Below, one piece after another: positions 12,879 to 60,572 of a DNA stretch of 64,000 bases (position 1 is the first letter of the stretch; each line of letters opens with the position of its first letter). The stretch covers positions 439,453-503,452 of the forward strand of contig CAWEDO010000001.1 in NCBI GenBank assembly GCA_963807915.1, written 5' to 3'. The position numbers and the translations under genes are program-made. The notes under the pieces were generated by a model. The model searched no databases. It was not told where the DNA came from and saw only the letters and a list, made by a program, of their open reading frames with translations. The stretch comes from an uncultured Chloroflexia bacterium. Its GTDB lineage: Bacteria > Chloroflexota > Limnocylindria > QHBO01.

Positions 12879-13817
12879 ATGCCCACCGCAGAACGCCGCT
12901 CCCGGCGCACCTTCTCCCCGAGATCGCTCGCAATCGTCAGCCTCTTGCTCCTGACCTTCGCGGTCGCCGCCTGCTCGGCGTCAGGCGCCGGGATCTTCCA
13001 GAACGTCGGCGACAACCTGCAGGGCCCCGATGGGGCGCCCGCGCCGGGCTTCGACACGGGCGGCGGCGGCCGGGACGATGGCGGCACGGGCGAGCAGCCG
13101 GCCGCTCTCGCGGATCAGCGGATCATCAAGACCGGCGAGATCAGCCTCGAGGTACCCAACGTCAGCACGGCCGTGGCAAAGGTGCGCGCCATGGCGCTCG
13201 ACCTGGGTGGGTATGTCGGCGGCTCGCAGGCGGGGACGCGCGACGAGGCCGCGACCCTGACCCTCCGCATTCCGGCAGACACCTTCGAAGAAGCGCTGAC
13301 AAGGCTGCACGACCTGGACGGCGACGTGGTGGCCGAAGCGACAAAGGAACAGGACGTGACCTCCGCTGTGGTGGATCTCGAGGCCAGGCTCGCCAACCTG
13401 CAGGCCTCTGAGGCCCAGTACCGAGTGCTGCTCGGCCAGGCCGTGAAGATCGATGACATCCTGGCGGTCCAGACTCGCCTCGACGACGTGCGCGGCCAGA
13501 TCGAGCAGCTCCAGGCGCAGCACAAGGAGCTCACTGGCCTGGCGGATCTCTCGACGCTGACCGTCACCCTCATCCCGACGGCACTGCAGCAGGCTGCCAA
13601 CGGGTGGGATCCGGGCAAGACCATCTCGGACGCGTTCGCCTCGCTGGTCGACGTGGGGCAGTCCATCGGCGATGGGTTGATCTGGTTCGCGATCGTGTGG
13701 CTGCCAGTGCTGATCGTGCTCGGGATCGTGATCCTGTTGGCGTGGCGCTTCCTCCCCGGCCTGCGCCGGCGTGCGCCACGCGAGCCCGAGGTCGCGGCGG
13801 GGGAGCGCGAGGGCTAA
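12879..13817 (+). CDS. DUF4349 domain lipoprotein with coiled-coil segment and C-terminal TM
   Basis: Start MPTAERRSRRTFSPRSLAIVSLLLLTFAVAAC (lipobox) preceded by AAGAGGA; an upstream in-frame ATG at 12819 also has an RBS. IIKTGEISLEV...GGYV matches the DUF4349 pattern. Stop overlaps the convergent bioY by 4 nt. Confidence 0.65.
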   Translation: MPTAERRSRRTFSPRSLAIVSLLLLTFAVAACSASGAGIFQNVGDNLQGPDGAPAPGFDTGGGGRDDGGTGEQPAALADQRIIKTGEISLEVPNVSTAVAKVRAMALDLGGYVGGSQAGTRDEAATLTLRIPADTFEEALTRLHDLDGDVVAEATKEQDVTSAVVDLEARLANLQASEAQYRVLLGQAVKIDDILAVQTRLDDVRGQIEQLQAQHKELTGLADLSTLTVTLIPTALQQAANGWDPGKTISDAFASLVDVGQSIGDGLIWFAIVWLPVLIVLGIVILLAWRFLPGLRRRAPREPEVAAGEREG

Positions 13818-19291: not shown

Positions 19292-21799
19292 GTGCCCGTC
19301 GTCCGCGCCGTCCGTCCCGCTCCGAACCGTCTGCTCGCCGGACTCTTGGCCATGGTCGTGCTTGGCGTGGTCATGGATCACGCCCTGGCATTGCCGCTTG
19401 CCGACGAGGCCGGCGCCTCGCCGGCCCCGCTCGTGGAGACCGTCGGGCATCTCGTGGTGAGCGAGGTCATGACTGGTGGCGCCAGCGCCTCGGACGAGTT
19501 CATCGAGCTGTACAACCCGACCTCCGCGGAGCTCCCGCTCGAAGGGCTCGAGGTCGTGTACGTGACCGCGACCGGTGCCACGCTGACGCGCAAGGCCGCG
19601 TGGTCAGTTGGCGCGGTGGGAGTGGCGCCCGGTGCTCATCTCCTGCTTGCCAACGAGGCGGGCATCTTCGCCGGCCTGGCCGATGTGGCCTACGCGAACG
19701 GCCTGGCGGCGACCGGCGGCAGCGTGGCGCTGCGGGTCATCGGTGCCGCGACCGCCATCGACGCGGTGGGCTGGGGCAACGCGACCAGCAGCTGGCTCGA
19801 GACGCGCCCGGCGCCAGCGCCGGCGGCCGGGAGCAGCCTGGAGCGCCTCCCCGGGGGAACGAGCGGATCGGCCCAGGACACCGACGACAACCTCATCGAC
19901 TGGTTCGTGGAGCCCCTCCCGGATCCGCAGAACAGCGGGTCGCCTCCGATTCCGGTCGAGAGTGGCGGCCCGTCGCCCACCCCGTCTGCAACCGGGACCG
20001 AGACGCCGCTGCCGAGCGCCAGCCCGACCGCTCAGCCATCGCTCACGCCCAGTCCCACTGCGAGTCCGCTGAGCACCCAGTCGCCCGCCCCTACGGCGAC
20101 TCCAGCTCCGACCGTGACCGCCACGCCGACGCCGGAGCCAACCGCGATCACGGTCGCCGAGGCGCGGGTCCGACCGGACGGAGCGGTGGTGACGGTCGAG
20201 GGCCTCGCCCTGACCGCGAGCGACTTCGCCGATGGTGGGGGCTACCTGGCCGATGCGACCGCCGGCATCGCGGTGCTGGTGGCAGATGGGTCGTTCCCGC
20301 GCGGTGCGCTGCTGCGCATCACTGGCACCGTCGACGATCGCTACGCGCAGCGAACCATCCGCACGACCGCTGCCCAGATCACGAGCGTCGGCTCGGGCAC
20401 CGATCCGCTCCCGCTGGATACCGCGACCGGAAACATCGGTGAATCGTTGGAGGGGCGGCTGGTGGAGGTCATCGGCGTCATCTCGAGCTCGGCCACGACC
20501 CTCAGCACGGGGGTGGCGTGGGACCTCGACGACGGCACGGGGGCGGCGCGGGTGCTGGTCGAGAACGGAACGGGAATCGACACCTCTGGGTGGGGACGCG
20601 GCGTGGGGCTGACCCTCGTCGGCGTGGTGGGGCAGCGCGACTCGAGCGGAACCGGCGCGTCGGGCTATCGCATCCAGCCGCGAGACGCTGCCGATGTCCT
20701 GGCGGTGGTTCCGGCTGCCACGCCCAGCCCCAGCCCATCCCCTGCGCCGACCGCGCAGCCCAGCGGGCCGAGCTCGGGCAGCCCATCGGCCAGTCCGTCG
20801 GCCAGCCCGATAAGCCCGCTCGTCTCGATTGGGGAGGCCCGCGCGGCCGCAACCGGCACGAGGCTGCGCATTCGCGGCGTGGTGACGGCTCCGTCAGGCC
20901 TGATCGAAGCGGGCAGCGCGGTGGTGCAGGACGCAACCGCGGCCATCCTGGTTCGCATCGGGACCGATGTCGGCACGCTGTCGCTCGGCCAGCTGGTGGA
21001 GCTCGATGGGACGCGCTCGACGAAGGCCGGCATGTTGAGCCTGCGGGTGTCCACCACCCCGATCAACCTCGGCACGCAGGCGGACCCGGAGGCCCTGCGT
21101 CGCGCCACTGGCGCGCTGGGAGAGGCAGAGGAGGCTCGCGTGGTCATCGCGCGCGGCGCAATCAGCGGTGCCATCAGCCGGCCGCGCGGCGGGAATGTCT
21201 CGTTCGCCATCGACGACGGCTCAGGCCTGATCCGGGTCACCATCTCGTCCCGCGCGCACATCTCGACCGCCTCGCTGGCCTCCGGCAGCTGGGTCGAGCT
21301 GCGTGCCGTGCTCGCCCAGGAGACGACCGGCTCGGCCCCGATGAGCGGCTATCGGCTCTGGCCGCGAATCACCGCCGACGTGCGGGTGATCGCTGCGGCG
21401 GCGGCGGGGACGACCAACGCCACCCCTTGCTGCGCAACCGGCGCGGCGCAACGCAGCCCGGTCGGTGGCAACCTGCCGCACGCGCTGCAGGACCAGGCCG
21501 CGACGCCGGCGCAGCAGGGGATCGCGCCCATCCTGGCGCGGCCCCAACCCACCGCGTCTCCTCGGCTGTCCTCGATCACCGACCAGGAGGCATCGTCAGC
21601 GCAAGGTGCGGGTCCTGCCGCCGGAGGCCTTGTCGTCTCCGGCATGGGCCTTGTCGCGCTCGGCGGCCTCGCGGCGTGGGCCGGCCGGCGGGGCACGCCG
21701 GACGACGATCCGTCGGCGGAGGCGGTTCCACGCCTGTCCGTGCTGCGAACCGAGCGTGCGGACGCTCGGAAGGAGCGGCGTATACTCCCGCCGACCTGA
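19292..21799 (+). CDS. Cell-surface protein: signal/TM, lamin-tail domain (LTD), four OB-fold-like repeats separated by Pro/Ser/Thr linkers, C-terminal TM anchor
   Basis: GTG start. LTD motif VVSEVMTGGASASDEFIELYNPT...GGSVALR. PT-rich linkers (SPTPSATGTETPLPSASPTAQPSLTPSPTASP; PSPSPSPAPTAQPSGPSSGSPSASPSASP). Repeated ~80-aa modules, e.g. ...GLALTASDFADGGGYLADATAGIAVLV...RITGTV. TM helix near the C-terminus. Confidence 0.7.
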   Translation: MPVVRAVRPAPNRLLAGLLAMVVLGVVMDHALALPLADEAGASPAPLVETVGHLVVSEVMTGGASASDEFIELYNPTSAELPLEGLEVVYVTATGATLTRKAAWSVGAVGVAPGAHLLLANEAGIFAGLADVAYANGLAATGGSVALRVIGAATAIDAVGWGNATSSWLETRPAPAPAAGSSLERLPGGTSGSAQDTDDNLIDWFVEPLPDPQNSGSPPIPVESGGPSPTPSATGTETPLPSASPTAQPSLTPSPTASPLSTQSPAPTATPAPTVTATPTPEPTAITVAEARVRPDGAVVTVEGLALTASDFADGGGYLADATAGIAVLVADGSFPRGALLRITGTVDDRYAQRTIRTTAAQITSVGSGTDPLPLDTATGNIGESLEGRLVEVIGVISSSATTLSTGVAWDLDDGTGAARVLVENGTGIDTSGWGRGVGLTLVGVVGQRDSSGTGASGYRIQPRDAADVLAVVPAATPSPSPSPAPTAQPSGPSSGSPSASPSASPISPLVSIGEARAAATGTRLRIRGVVTAPSGLIEAGSAVVQDATAAILVRIGTDVGTLSLGQLVELDGTRSTKAGMLSLRVSTTPINLGTQADPEALRRATGALGEAEEARVVIARGAISGAISRPRGGNVSFAIDDGSGLIRVTISSRAHISTASLASGSWVELRAVLAQETTGSAPMSGYRLWPRITADVRVIAAAAAGTTNATPCCATGAAQRSPVGGNLPHALQDQAATPAQQGIAPILARPQPTASPRLSSITDQEASSAQGAGPAAGGLVVSGMGLVALGGLAAWAGRRGTPDDDPSAEAVPRLSVLRTERADARKERRILPPT

Positions 21800-56660: not shown

Positions 56661-57248
56661 ATGGGCTGCGAGGTCACCTTCCATCACCGGATCGGCCAGG
56701 ATCGGCTGACCGCGGCCATCGCTCCCCAGACCTCCGAGGCGTTCCACAAGCTGCTCGAGTCGGCCCTGGCCGAGACCTGTCAGGCGGCGCTCGGCTCGCA
56801 GGATGTTGAGATCGAGCTGACGCTCTCCGGCGACGAGGAGATGACGCACCTCAACTTCGACCACATGGGCGAGCGCGGCCCCACCGACGTCCTCGCCTTC
56901 CCGCTGCACGAGTGGTCGGTCGACATGGGCCACTCCCACCTCGCCGATGAGGATGCCGGCATGCCGCCGGGCGGCCTCCTGCTCGGGGACGTGGTGATCG
57001 ACGTCGAGCAGGCCGTGCGGCAGGCGACCGATGGCGGCTGGAGCGCGGCGCAGGAGATCGCCCTGCTCGCGGTCCACGGGACGCTGCACCTGATCGGCCA
57101 TGACCACGTCGAGAGCGAGGACGAGGCCGCCATGCGGGCGATCGAGCGGAAGGTCCTCGAGAAGCTGCACAAGCGCCACGCCGATGTCGGCTGGCGGCCC
57201 GGCTCCCTCTTCGACCGGCCGGGCAGCACGGTCCCGGCCGGCGCCTAG
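56661..57248 (+). CDS. ybeY: rRNA maturation endoribonuclease YbeY, with a ~35-aa C-terminal extension
   Basis: Zinc motif HGTLHLIGHDH; 195 aa. Follows pgpH as in the Bacillus yqfF-yqfG arrangement. Confidence 0.85.
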   Translation: MGCEVTFHHRIGQDRLTAAIAPQTSEAFHKLLESALAETCQAALGSQDVEIELTLSGDEEMTHLNFDHMGERGPTDVLAFPLHEWSVDMGHSHLADEDAGMPPGGLLLGDVVIDVEQAVRQATDGGWSAAQEIALLAVHGTLHLIGHDHVESEDEAAMRAIERKVLEKLHKRHADVGWRPGSLFDRPGSTVPAGA

Positions 57249-59038
57249 CTGGGCACGAGGTGCACGGGGTTCCCGCGGATGGTGACCGCCCAGGTCGTCG
57301 TGTCGTTCCCGCCGCCAACCGTGTAGCGCACCTTCCACCACCCCGGCGCCGGTTCCCCACCCGGGGTGAGCCCGGTCAGCCCATACGTGGACGGCAGCGT
57401 GATGCTGATGCGCAGCCAATAGGCATCGAAGTGGCTGCCGCTGCCATCCGTGCTGCGCGGGCAGTAGGCCGGCAGGCCGGCCGGGACGCTCGACCCGTGA
57501 TTGGTCTGGATGCAGCGCACGTTCGTCCCTGACTCGCCAGCCGTTCCGCTCTTGTCATGGCTCGTGTACGAGAAGGTGGCGGCGTTGTAGGCATTGCCGT
57601 CGGGGTTGAGGACCTCGAGCCACGCGCCGCCGCCGACGTCGCCGGGATCGTAGAGATCGATGTCGATCGTCTTGCCCGCCCCCGACGGCCGGTCGATCTG
57701 GGCCAGGTAGAAGGTCTGGACGCCCGTCTGGACGTTCGCGTAGGCCGCCATCCGGCTTGACCCGTAGACGCGCGGATTGCCCGACGTGCTCGTGACCTCA
57801 AGACCCCAGCGATTTGCCGCTCCCACCCCGGCGTTGATGTTCGGGTCGAGGATGACCGTGCCACCCCCACTGGCGGTCACCACCTTGGTGGTGGTGACCT
57901 GGAGCCGGTACTTGCCGGCCGCCAGATTGACCGGGATCCGCCACCACTTGAGGTGGTATTGGTAGTTCGGATCGGTCGCCCGGTCGCAGCGCGTGACGCC
58001 GTTGCTTCCACTTGCGTATTGCGGGGCGCCGGTGCCGAGCAGGCCGCTCTCGTCGACCTGCCGCTCGTTCTCGAACGTGCCACCCGAGCCCCATACCAGC
58101 GTGTCATCGGTCAGCAGGAAAGGCGTTCCGTTCTGGTTGTAGAGGTTGAAGTAGGTGGACACCGACTGCGGATTGGACCCGCCCATGTTCGTGGTCCACT
58201 CGTCACCCGTCCCGGCCCGGCCGGAGCCGACTACCGGCATGCCGCAGAAGCCGGGATCGAAGAGGTAGACCCGTCCGCCGCCACCACCGGGGATCTCGAC
58301 GGTGTAGCCGTACCCGGCCGGATCATATTCGGGGTTGGTGATGGTTGGTCCGCTCACCCGGGTCGGCAGGTAGGCGTCGCCGTTTCGGCTGTCACCGCCC
58401 ATGGTGAATGACACGCCCCAGAAGCCCTGGCTGTTCAGCTGGCTGGGCGCGCTCCGGCCGAGCGCGGTGCTCGAGGCCGTGGCGTTGGGGACGCCGCTCG
58501 AGGAATTCGAGTTCCCCGACGTGATGCACAGCGGGTCGCTGCCTGCCGCGCGCATGTCAATGCAGCCGACGCCGTAGTAGTTGAGCGGGCTGCCCATCGG
58601 CACGGGGAGGACGTATTCGGCGCTGGCAGTGCGGGCGATCGGGATGGTGTTGATGCCGACGATCCGCGCGAAGAAGGTGTCGACACGGGTCGAGATCGTG
58701 ACATTCAGGCGCCGCGGGTTGCCAGGGTCCTGGACCGGCGTGACGACCGTCCCCGATCCATCGGTGTACCCGTTCTTGGTAGCCTCCTGCTCGGCGATCG
58801 TGTATCCGGTCGCAACCTGGCCGGGCAGGAAGACCACCCCCGCCAGCGCTGCCGCGTCCGCGGCGCGCTGGACGCGCAGGACGTTGCTCTGGTACCAGCC
58901 GAGGTCGATGATCAGGCCGACCAGCGCGATGAGCGGGATGAGGACGCCGCCTGCGATGACGAGCACCTGTCCGCGGTGCGAGTTACGCGAACGCCGGCGG
59001 TCGGTGGTGGCCGGTGACGGGCTGTCGTGGCTGGGCAT
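57245..59038 (-). CDS. TadG-like / Tad N-terminal-domain pseudopilin-like large protein (597 aa, Gly/Ser/Thr-rich beta-rich extracellular region)
   Basis: N-terminus VLVIAGGVLIPLIALVGLIIDLGWYQSNVLRVQRAADAAALAGV is the Tad/TadE-G-like N-terminal TM motif. Long low-complexity extracellular part. Confidence 0.7.
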   Translation of the reverse strand: MPSHDSPSPATTDRRRSRNSHRGQVLVIAGGVLIPLIALVGLIIDLGWYQSNVLRVQRAADAAALAGVVFLPGQVATGYTIAEQEATKNGYTDGSGTVVTPVQDPGNPRRLNVTISTRVDTFFARIVGINTIPIARTASAEYVLPVPMGSPLNYYGVGCIDMRAAGSDPLCITSGNSNSSSGVPNATASSTALGRSAPSQLNSQGFWGVSFTMGGDSRNGDAYLPTRVSGPTITNPEYDPAGYGYTVEIPGGGGGRVYLFDPGFCGMPVVGSGRAGTGDEWTTNMGGSNPQSVSTYFNLYNQNGTPFLLTDDTLVWGSGGTFENERQVDESGLLGTGAPQYASGSNGVTRCDRATDPNYQYHLKWWRIPVNLAAGKYRLQVTTTKVVTASGGGTVILDPNINAGVGAANRWGLEVTSTSGNPRVYGSSRMAAYANVQTGVQTFYLAQIDRPSGAGKTIDIDLYDPGDVGGGAWLEVLNPDGNAYNAATFSYTSHDKSGTAGESGTNVRCIQTNHGSSVPAGLPAYCPRSTDGSGSHFDAYWLRISITLPSTYGLTGLTPGGEPAPGWWKVRYTVGGGNDTTTWAVTIRGNPVHLVPS

Positions 59039-59047
59039 GGACTCTCC

Positions 59048-59641
59048 TCACTGACCCGTCGGATTGAGGGCCATCACGGTTCGATCGTTCATCGTCAGGC
59101 TGCTCACGCCGGCGAGCGCCAGGAACGGGGTCTGGAAGTCGTACCTGTAGCGCATGGCGATGCCGATCGAATCGGCAGGCTGCGTGTTGGTGCGGAAGCA
59201 GGCACTCCATCCCACCGAGACCTGCGAGAAGTCCAGCCTCTGGCCGCCGACCACGGGTCCGCCACCAGGGTTGTATCGCCAGACGTTGACGATGCCGGGC
59301 GTCTCGCCGCCGGTGGCCGTCGCCTTGAAGATGCGAATCTCTCCGACCTGGGCGGGCTGGATGGGCGATCCGGACCCCTCCAGCACGCGCTCGATGGCAG
59401 CGATGATGTTCGGGTCAACGCTCGCGGCGTTCGGGGACTTGCCTGCGCCGCAGCCGAGCGGCCCGCCACCGTTCGCCAGGGCCGATCCGACGCGAGCGCC
59501 CTCTCGGGTGGCGTATTCGATCGTCAGGTTGTTCGTGAAGATGAACCCGAACTCCACGGCGCCCAGGATCAGGAAGAGGAGGAACGGGATCGCCATCGCC
59601 GCCTCGACCATGCTCTGGCCGCGCTCAGCGCGCCCGCTCAT
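59048..59641 (-). CDS. TadE-like protein (paralog 1)
   Basis: Internal start MSGRAERGQSMVEAAMAIPFLLFLILGAVEFGFIF (TadE motif) of ORF 59048..60052. 198 aa. Confidence 0.7.
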   Translation of the reverse strand: MSGRAERGQSMVEAAMAIPFLLFLILGAVEFGFIFTNNLTIEYATREGARVGSALANGGGPLGCGAGKSPNAASVDPNIIAAIERVLEGSGSPIQPAQVGEIRIFKATATGGETPGIVNVWRYNPGGGPVVGGQRLDFSQVSVGWSACFRTNTQPADSIGIAMRYRYDFQTPFLALAGVSSLTMNDRTVMALNPTGQ

Positions 59642-59661
59642 CGCTCGCTCCCGGTCGCGAG

Positions 59662-60255
59662 TCACAGAACCGGCTCCATGCGCATCTGCTGCGTCGCCGT
59701 GAAGGTGGGCGGACCGACGAAGCCGATCATGCCGGAGAGCGGCGTCTTCCAGGCGTACCGGTAGGTGACCTTCACGCCGATGGTGTCGATCCCCGTGTGG
59801 ACGCCGCCGCAGCCAAGGAGAACGTTGCAGCGGCCGGGCTCGGGATAGGTGGTGGCGACGACGCTGTACGGCAAGGTATGTGCGATGCCGTCCAGGTCGG
59901 AGCAAGTCATCGACCCCGTCCGGCGATACCGGTTCACCTGGCCGCTGATGACGTTCCCGTTCAGGTCGGAGAAGTAGACCTCGACGGTGGCGATGCCCGA
60001 CCGGTCGGACGTGGCGCCGAAGTCGCGCTCGAGGGCGTTCAGTGCCGTGCAATCAGTCCCCGTCCGATCGCCGCCCTCGGCCACCACCTGGGCAACGAGA
60101 CGGGTCGCGTAGTTGAGCGCATTGAGGGTGCTGAACGCGAAGGCGAACTCGACGAATGCAATCAGAACCATCAGGAACAGTGGAAGGACGAGCGCGAACT
60201 CGACTGCGGCCTGGCCGCGCCTTTGCCGCCCACGCCGCGCACGGAGGAGGAACAT
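59662..60255 (-). CDS. TadE-like protein (paralog 2)
   Basis: Internal start MFLLRARRGRQRRGQAAVEFALVLPLFLMVLIAFVEFAF. 198 aa, the same length as paralog 1. Confidence 0.7.
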   Translation of the reverse strand: MFLLRARRGRQRRGQAAVEFALVLPLFLMVLIAFVEFAFAFSTLNALNYATRLVAQVVAEGGDRTGTDCTALNALERDFGATSDRSGIATVEVYFSDLNGNVISGQVNRYRRTGSMTCSDLDGIAHTLPYSVVATTYPEPGRCNVLLGCGGVHTGIDTIGVKVTYRYAWKTPLSGMIGFVGPPTFTATQQMRMEPVL

Positions 60256-60572
60256 TCGGTTTCCCTTGGCGCTACGGTCTGATCGTACGATTTGGCCCAC
60301 AGACTGGGACGAATAGGGCGTGGGCGCGATGGCCCATTAGTCCTGGGCGGGTGGGAAGACCGGTTGCCTTCGGGCCGGATGTCAGGGAGCGGGCGTCCCT
60401 CGGTCGGCGGCTCCGTCGGCTCGCCTCGGCTCGCCTCGGCCGATAACCCAGGGTCATCGTCATGCGCCGATGCACTCTCTCGTGCGCCAAATGATCAGCG
60501 TGGGTGATTCGGAGACGCCGGAACAGGCTGAGATGCCCACGAGCATCAGCAGCGGTAATGACCGCCCGCGAG

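Follow-up and report, generated by a model that had tools for sequence, protein, structure and literature searches.

Why do three genes for Tad-type pseudopilins stand among housekeeping genes, with no gene for a pilus machine beside them? The question is raised by a 64-kb stretch of DNA (here called the window; 69.4% guanine plus cytosine [GC]) that carries, at 57245-60255 on the minus strand, two genes for TadE-like proteins (TadE1 and TadE2) followed by one for a larger TadG-type protein (Table 1). We consider it likely that this trio is a functional, detached tip module of the tadE-tadF-tadG type, serving a type IVc (Tad/Flp) pilus whose machine, we infer, is encoded elsewhere in the same genome. 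The named close homologues of the trio proteins come from Candidatus Limnocylindria and from Chloroflexota metagenome-assembled genomes (MAGs), and the GC content of the window agrees with the mean of 68.9% for the class (PMC10608941). We regard the host as a soil or freshwater Chloroflexota bacterium of the class Limnocylindria, itself regarded as monoderm.

As read from the sequence, the trio is a tight operon with intact reading frames. The spacers measure 20 nt (TadE1-TadE2) and 9 nt (TadE2-TadG type), a GGAG precedes the ATG of the TadG-type gene, and a Shine-Dalgarno-like GGGAA lies 6 nt ahead of the TadE1 ATG (60255). The Tad-type N-termini quoted in an earlier, sequence-only reading of this DNA are present in the translations, and Pfam confirms them as TadE, TadE, and Tad: TadE1 and TadE2 score 42.9 and 48.6 bits against PF07811 (gathering cutoff, 22.9), and the TadG-type protein matches PF13400 over residues 23-68 with 33.6 bits (cutoff, 22.3). 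The 597-aa TadG-like protein that this reading described is thereby upheld, and it is an exact match to database protein P0001. Both TadE-like proteins had been given as 198 aa; with ATG starts at 60255 and 59641, each is 197 aa. TadE2 is an exact match to database protein P0391, and P0001 and P0391 are both encoded on one 1,434,293-bp contig.

A class III signal is present in both TadE types and consists of a short basic leader, the sequence G↓Q-x-x-V-E (Gly-1, Gln+1, Glu+5; the arrow marks the predicted cleavage site), and a hydrophobic helix. In TadE1, a basic leader of 14 residues is followed by G↓QAAVEFALVLPLF (RRG↓QAAVEFALVLPLF), which gives a predicted mature protein of 183 aa; in TadE2, the leader reads MSGRAERG↓QSMVE (ERG↓QSMVEAAMAIPF), and the predicted mature protein has 189 aa. 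The GQxxVEF motif is unchanged across 8 TadE1 orthologues. The TadE2 family (42 homologues) has Gly-1 in 41/41, Gln+1 in 40/41, and Glu+5 in 42/42. An AlphaFold2 model of TadE2 (predicted local distance difference test [pLDDT], 88) has a helix at residues 6-54, followed by a 5-stranded sheet. The TadG-type protein has a leader and then G23↓Q24 VLVI, with no Glu+5 and a predicted mature length of 574 aa. Its family keeps Gly-1/Gln+1 in 53/53 sequences, but none of 54 has Glu at +5, where the residue is Ile, Leu, Met, Val, or Thr.

All three genes have low ratios of nonsynonymous to synonymous substitution (dN/dS, 0.12-0.29) relative to orthologues that are 75-81% identical (loci L002, L004, L005, and L006; L-numbers denote loci with related genes). 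The mature lengths of 183, 189, and 574 aa are the same in L004-L006 and slightly different in L002, and there are >1000 full-length homologues each for the TadG-type protein and TadE2. Judged by these ratios, the cassette is under purifying selection.

A search with hidden Markov models for four parts (E1, E2, the TadG N-terminus, and the TadG ectodomain, where E1, E2, and G stand for TadE1, TadE2, and the TadG type) recovered the ordered E1-E2-G cassette at 24 independent loci in changing neighborhoods. The cassette adjoins ybeY in L004-L006 and L096, as it does in the window, but other genes, including amt, lie upstream. In L002, L003, and L008, an AlkZ-like gene and an acetyltransferase gene flank the cassette, which lies 6.6 kb from the place where ybeY, the FAD oxidoreductase gene described below, and pth stand together; in L001 and L095, its contexts are entirely different. 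The proposal of a stand-alone minor-pilin module, made in the sequence-only reading, is thus well supported by a 24-locus unit that changes its neighbors, by purifying selection, and by the Gly-1/Glu+5 signals.

The window has one cassette, and 2-5 TadE/TadG sets stand in tandem, often beside two-component regulators, in L009, L010, L011, and L092-L094. Such arrays (L009:900-12154, L010:2086-18661, L011:6977-15886, and L094:2400-11806) form 10-16 kb stretches that often adjoin two-component regulators, DUF192, or a VWA protein. Within them, the length of the TadG-type protein varies between 165 and 789 aa, PKD domains occur in one TadE-like protein, and some cassettes are ordered G-E1-E2. Cassettes broken by frameshifts, with fused or split TadE/TadG open reading frames (ORFs), occur in long-read MAGs (L007:9362-11908, L094:2400-5952, and L096:8784-9920); these breaks are probably indel errors of assembly and not pseudogenes. 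A 66-aa gene of L094, labeled "TadE (weak)" and considered as a small pilin, turned out to be a fragment of a frameshifted cassette.

The part of the TadG-type protein that sets it apart is its ectodomain. A long alpha-1 helix leads into a pilin-like head, and the ~450 aa that follow, which include 6 Cys, form a beta-rich ectodomain. In the AlphaFold2 model (pLDDT, 84.6; predicted template modeling score, 0.80), the helix spans residues 22-68, the head is small and of alpha/beta structure, and the ectodomain is large and rich in beta structure. The ectodomain was rightly described as Gly/Ser/Thr-rich, since these residues make up 34% of positions 145-597. Beyond residue 90 (~500 residues), the protein has no Pfam or NCBIfam domain, including von Willebrand A or any other described adhesive domain. 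Foldseek returned template modeling scores of ≤0.13, and a profile search against PDB sequences gave no match, so that no PDB relative was found by sequence or by fold; the best structural echoes of the ectodomain are carbohydrate-binding or lectin-like beta-sandwiches and not DNA-binding folds. A search with the ectodomain alone over 1.84 billion proteins gave 681 representatives, of which 86 reached E ≤1e-30, and in full-length matches the domain lies at the C-terminus. We therefore consider it a lineage-restricted domain.

By analogy with other type IV filaments, the three proteins would enter the membrane through their hydrophobic N-terminal helices, and a TadV-type prepilin peptidase encoded elsewhere would cut after the invariant Gly (G↓Q). 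The two ~185-aa pseudopilins, which have Glu+5, and the 574-aa TadG-type protein, which has none, may then bundle their alpha-1 helices into a heterotrimer. This complex would prime polymerization of an Flp-type major pilin by a distant CpaF/TadBC machine and would end at the pilus tip, where the TadG-type protein would be the cap and, as a putative adhesin, would set the binding specificity of the pilus through its lineage-specific beta-rich ectodomain. Within a type IV filament, a subunit uses its Glu5 to pair with the N-terminus of the one above it, and tips are capped by a subunit without Glu5 (PMC10191384); as the TadG type is the only one of the three proteins that lacks Glu+5, this suggests an order with the TadG type on top and the two TadE proteins beneath. 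The cassette, with its own promoter region, would move around the genome as a unit, and the presence of several paralogous cassettes in relatives suggests that tips are interchangeable.

The partner machine is the weak link of this proposal. As judged by Pfam, housekeeping genes account for ~55 further ORFs of the window (e.g., dnaE, carAB, gap-pgk-eno, lepA, hrcA-grpE-dnaK, dnaJ-prmA, yqeY, a gene for a 7TM-HD protein, ybeY, pth, and mfd). The sequence-only reading had found no flp, cpaF/tadA, tadB/C, or prepilin peptidase gene adjacent to the trio, and this holds for the whole 64 kb. The window has neither a CpaF-type Walker A motif nor an A24 peptidase GxGD-K motif, and in none of its frames is there a class III signal motif besides those of the two TadE genes. 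A six-frame scan for Flp/Fap pilins (50-80 aa, G↓xxxxEY plus a hydrophobic helix) gave no hit, either in the window or among loci of the Limnocylindria type; the same scan, as a positive control, recovers the Flp genes of 12 distant loci.

Several observations weigh against a tip module of a Tad pilus. Neither in the window nor in the 353 kb around 15 related cassettes (the loci of ≥12 kb) was a Tad machine, prepilin peptidase, or Flp gene found, and no machine gene was seen within 10 kb of a cassette in the related loci; the partner machine is therefore assumed and not observed. The literature searched on Limnocylindria, Ellin6529, and CSP1-4 contained nothing on pili, and older literature tabulates TadG as a cytoplasmic-membrane component and not as a pilin (table in PMC10191384). 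On the other side, proximity of TadE/TadF to a tad locus is the usual association and not a strict requirement (PMC12075869), and distant homologues of the same TadG family are linked to Tad machines. Full-length homologues with 31-42% identity lie 5-7 kb from cpaB-tadZ-cpaF-tadB-tadC in L027 and L042. The canonical arrangement, A24-Flp-TadE-TadG-CpaB-TadZ-CpaF, is found in L070, and the G↓Q site recurs in the Flp encoded there. Flp pilins beside distant homologues likewise have the G↓Q site of the cassette, and true Flp genes occur in 12 distant loci.

In the actinobacterial-looking L027 (9363-21566) and L042 (9752-21506), two large ORFs separate a TadE plus TadG-type pair from the machine genes. 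They are putatively polA and rpsA, named from size and N-terminal sequence only, and the layout resembles a halfway step in the separation of such a pair from the machine.

The absence of machine genes can also be taken at face value. The trio would then belong to a system that works without CpaF/TadBC or Flp, either a membrane-anchored surface complex or a short TadE-like filament, and would represent an adhesion or envelope module specific to Limnocylindria that has only the N-terminal helix in common with Tad pseudopilins. We consider this unlikely, although the surroundings of all 24 cassette loci, arrays of up to five sets among them, showed no machine, peptidase, or Flp gene, whereas the more distant TadG-like homologues routinely adjoin Flp and CpaF; the restriction of the ectodomain to one lineage and its lack of a known relative point the same way. 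However, a strict Gly-1/Glu+5 in both TadE proteins, with loss of Glu+5 confined to the large subunit, is the signature of subunits that a prepilin peptidase cleaves and that stack into a type IV filament, and another reason for keeping this pattern is not easily imagined. Moreover, detached cassettes that depend on a distant machine are documented (PMC12075869), and Tad pili have been reported in other Chloroflexota. The stronger form of the idea, in which Limnocylindria have no canonical Tad machine and the multicopy TadE-TadE-TadG cassettes, each bearing its own lineage-specific ectodomain and often flanked by two-component regulators, constitute a new machine-independent surface system, is if anything a little more doubtful. 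Possible forms of such a system include a self-assembling or differently powered pseudopilin complex and a short, Flp-less TadE-like filament. The trio would involve a new mechanism only if the machine proves absent, and the cassettes would then be something new.

The cassette could instead serve another type IV filament, for example, a Tad-like/Com competence pilus such as that of Micrococcus luteus; the ligand of the TadG-type ectodomain would then be DNA or a cell wall component and not a surface. According to PMC4322843, TadE/TadF/TadG-like genes act in Flp-pilus-dependent transformation in Actinobacteria. The host is regarded as monoderm, like Actinobacteria, and the cassette of the window stands among housekeeping genes. 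Yet nothing in the loci points to competence genes, the lectin-like echoes of the ectodomain do not suggest a DNA-binding fold, and the presence of several paralogous cassettes in one genome is more in keeping with variable adhesion. Service to another filament machine thus seems improbable to us, slightly more so than a system without a machine.

The gene upstream of the trio suggests another link. A flavin adenine dinucleotide (FAD) oxidoreductase gene, which the sequence-only reading had called divergent, lies on the minus strand and is therefore codirectional with the trio, so that cotranscription and a functional tie (e.g., in pilin modification) might be imagined. The gene is on the same strand, 317 bp upstream, and there is no terminator-like site in the spacer. 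Its adjacency is not kept, however. Upstream of the cassette, close relatives have amt (L004:1-3300, L005:3590-6990, and L096:6808-8784), some of them with an additional ~467-aa gene, and L006 (5641-8720) has 623-aa and 466-aa ORFs instead; where the oxidoreductase is seen (L005, L006, and L096), these genes separate it from the cassette. In L002, L003, and L008, it lies by ybeY/pth, away from the cassette, and it is absent from L001 and L095. A tblastn search of the window found no remnant of amt or of the 467-aa gene, and as only 317 bp are left between oxidoreductase and cassette, their junction has been rearranged in the window. A functional tie between the two is thus very improbable. Least credible is the remaining alternative of the sequence-only reading, a decaying remnant of a former tad locus whose machine genes were lost, which the missing machine genes and the rearranged site, without the amt and second gene of relatives, would fit, but which we reject because of the selection and conservation data (three intact frames, dN/dS of 0.12-0.29, mature lengths identical to those of orthologues, >1000 full-length homologues each of the TadG type and TadE2, and an order kept at 24 loci).

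The tip module proposed here has a close counterpart in Myxococcus xanthus, in which four dispersed kilLMN clusters encode TadE/TadF/TadG homologues (2025, Nat Commun, PMC12075869). KilL, KilM, and KilN assemble into heterotrimers that serve as interchangeable tips and prime the Kil Tad pilus; their large subunit has a domain without a PDB relative (PMC12075869). The likeness extends to three colocated TadE/TadF/TadG-like genes away from the machine genes, to several paralogous sets per genome (seen here in relatives, with one set in the window), to prepilin-type cleavage sites, and to a large TadG-like subunit with a C-terminal domain that lacks a PDB relative. In contrast, the KilLMN host is a diderm predator, and the ectodomain of the trio is unrelated, lineage specific, and beta-rich. 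For the present cassette, a trimer, a tip location, and dependence on a machine are proposed by analogy with other type IV filaments. Because the detached layout was shown in Myxococcus in 2025, the trio is a new example and not a new kind; the novelty lies in the host class, in the family to which the ectodomain belongs, and in the consistent separation of the cassette from any machine. Also among the closest systems are the GspK-GspI-GspJ pseudopilus tip of type II secretion and the PilVWX-PilY1 priming complexes of type IVa pili.

The tad locus of Aggregatibacter actinomycetemcomitans has the order flp-tadV-rcpCAB-tadZABCDEFG, so that the canonical locus ends in tadE-tadF-tadG; TadE and TadF are reportedly processed in a TadV-dependent manner, according to the title of Tomich et al. 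(2006), which is cited in PMC10191384. The trio resembles this ending in its TadE/TadG-type domain families and in its two small pseudopilins followed by a large TadG. Unlike its counterpart, it is detached from flp, tadV, and tadZABC, no outer membrane components are expected, and no described domain is detectably similar to its TadG ectodomain. Kinship with Mycobacterium tuberculosis Rv3654c/Rv3655c, which the sequence-only reading had suggested, was not borne out: the trio has the N-terminal TadE-type hydrophobic motif in common with these proteins, and the NCBIfam models TIGR03816 and NF041390 scored 18.8 (cutoff, 50.95) and 16.2 (cutoff, 40). These models have ~100-110 positions, so the mycobacterial proteins are much shorter than the TadE proteins of the trio. 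The mycobacterial genes lie inside a flp/tadABC locus.

If the tip module is real, the idea of interchangeable tips, which comes from a diderm predator, would also apply to a class of Chloroflexota that is abundant, uncultured, and regarded as monoderm. The trio also defines a conserved three-gene unit whose large subunit bears an uncharacterized ~450-aa ectodomain. For annotation, this would mean treating isolated TadE/TadG genes as functional tip modules instead of debris. In ecological terms, how many cassettes Limnocylindria cells carry, and how varied these are, may mirror what the cells attach to.

The intergenic leader between the oxidoreductase stop codon and tadE1 presumably holds the cassette's own promoter and 5' untranslated region. 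As the sequence-only reading had noted, it is lower in GC (65.6%, compared with 69.4% for the window), and the segment at 60461-60560, with 60% GC, falls at the 2.5th percentile of 100-bp windows. That the leader does not encode an Flp-type pilin was likewise borne out, as the six-frame motif scan found no Flp-like ORF in it. No sigma-70 consensus and no terminator were found in the leader, nor does it match Rfam, whose sole hit (E, 0.69) is at another site and irrelevant. The direct repeat reported there is real; its limits and copy number (60418-60441, 2.5 copies) are replaced by those in Table 1. It was not detected in relatives, being an alignment gap in most of them (L005, L006, L002, and L003), with no significant match, and it is probably a product of slippage without function. 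A 42-nt block is a candidate promoter or operator: it has 33/42 matches to L006 (MAFFT alignment with L004-L006, counted by hand) despite different upstream genes. This evidence is weak, because blastn with a word size of 7 does not report the block. Apart from it, the leader has no significant similarity to relatives.

Table 1. Features of the window discussed in the text
Feature	Position	Strand	Remarks
tadE-type minor pilin 1 (TadE1, E1 type)	59662..60255	-	197 aa; PF07811
tadE/tadF-type minor pilin 2 (TadE2, E2 type)	59048..59641	-	197 aa; PF07811
tadG-type large minor pilin, putative tip cap	57245..59038	-	597 aa; PF13400
Intergenic leader, oxidoreductase stop codon to tadE1	60256..60572	-	317 bp
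Tandem repeat CGGCTCGCCT (plus-strand reading)	60408..60440		Tandem Repeats Finder: period 10, 3.4 copies, 91% matches, score 52
Weakly conserved 42-nt block CAGGACTAATGGGCCATCGCGCCCACGCCCTATTCGTCCCAG	60304..60345	-	3' end 48 nt upstream of tadE1 ATG
FAD oxidoreductase gene	60573..~61724	-	upstream of the trio
ybeY	56661..57248	+	downstream of the trio
ORF of 279 aa	52762..53601	-	no Pfam match
ORF of 835 aa with Lamin Tail Domain	19292..21799	+	PF00932, E 3.4e-10

Downstream of the trio, ybeY is present, as had been stated, and is convergent with the TadG-type gene. The ends of the two genes overlap by 4 bp at their stop codons (57245-57248), so that neither strand has space for a terminator between them.

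Two further ORFs of the window deserve mention. The 279-aa ORF has a coding-like GC content at third codon positions, and its N-terminus is 88% identical in L004, where it occupies the same place upstream of yqeY; it is thus a conserved protein. The 835-aa ORF, with its Lamin Tail Domain and a weak OB-fold match, may be a secreted or cell surface protein, and a protein with a Lamin Tail Domain is also encoded near the L001 cassette (13171-13584).

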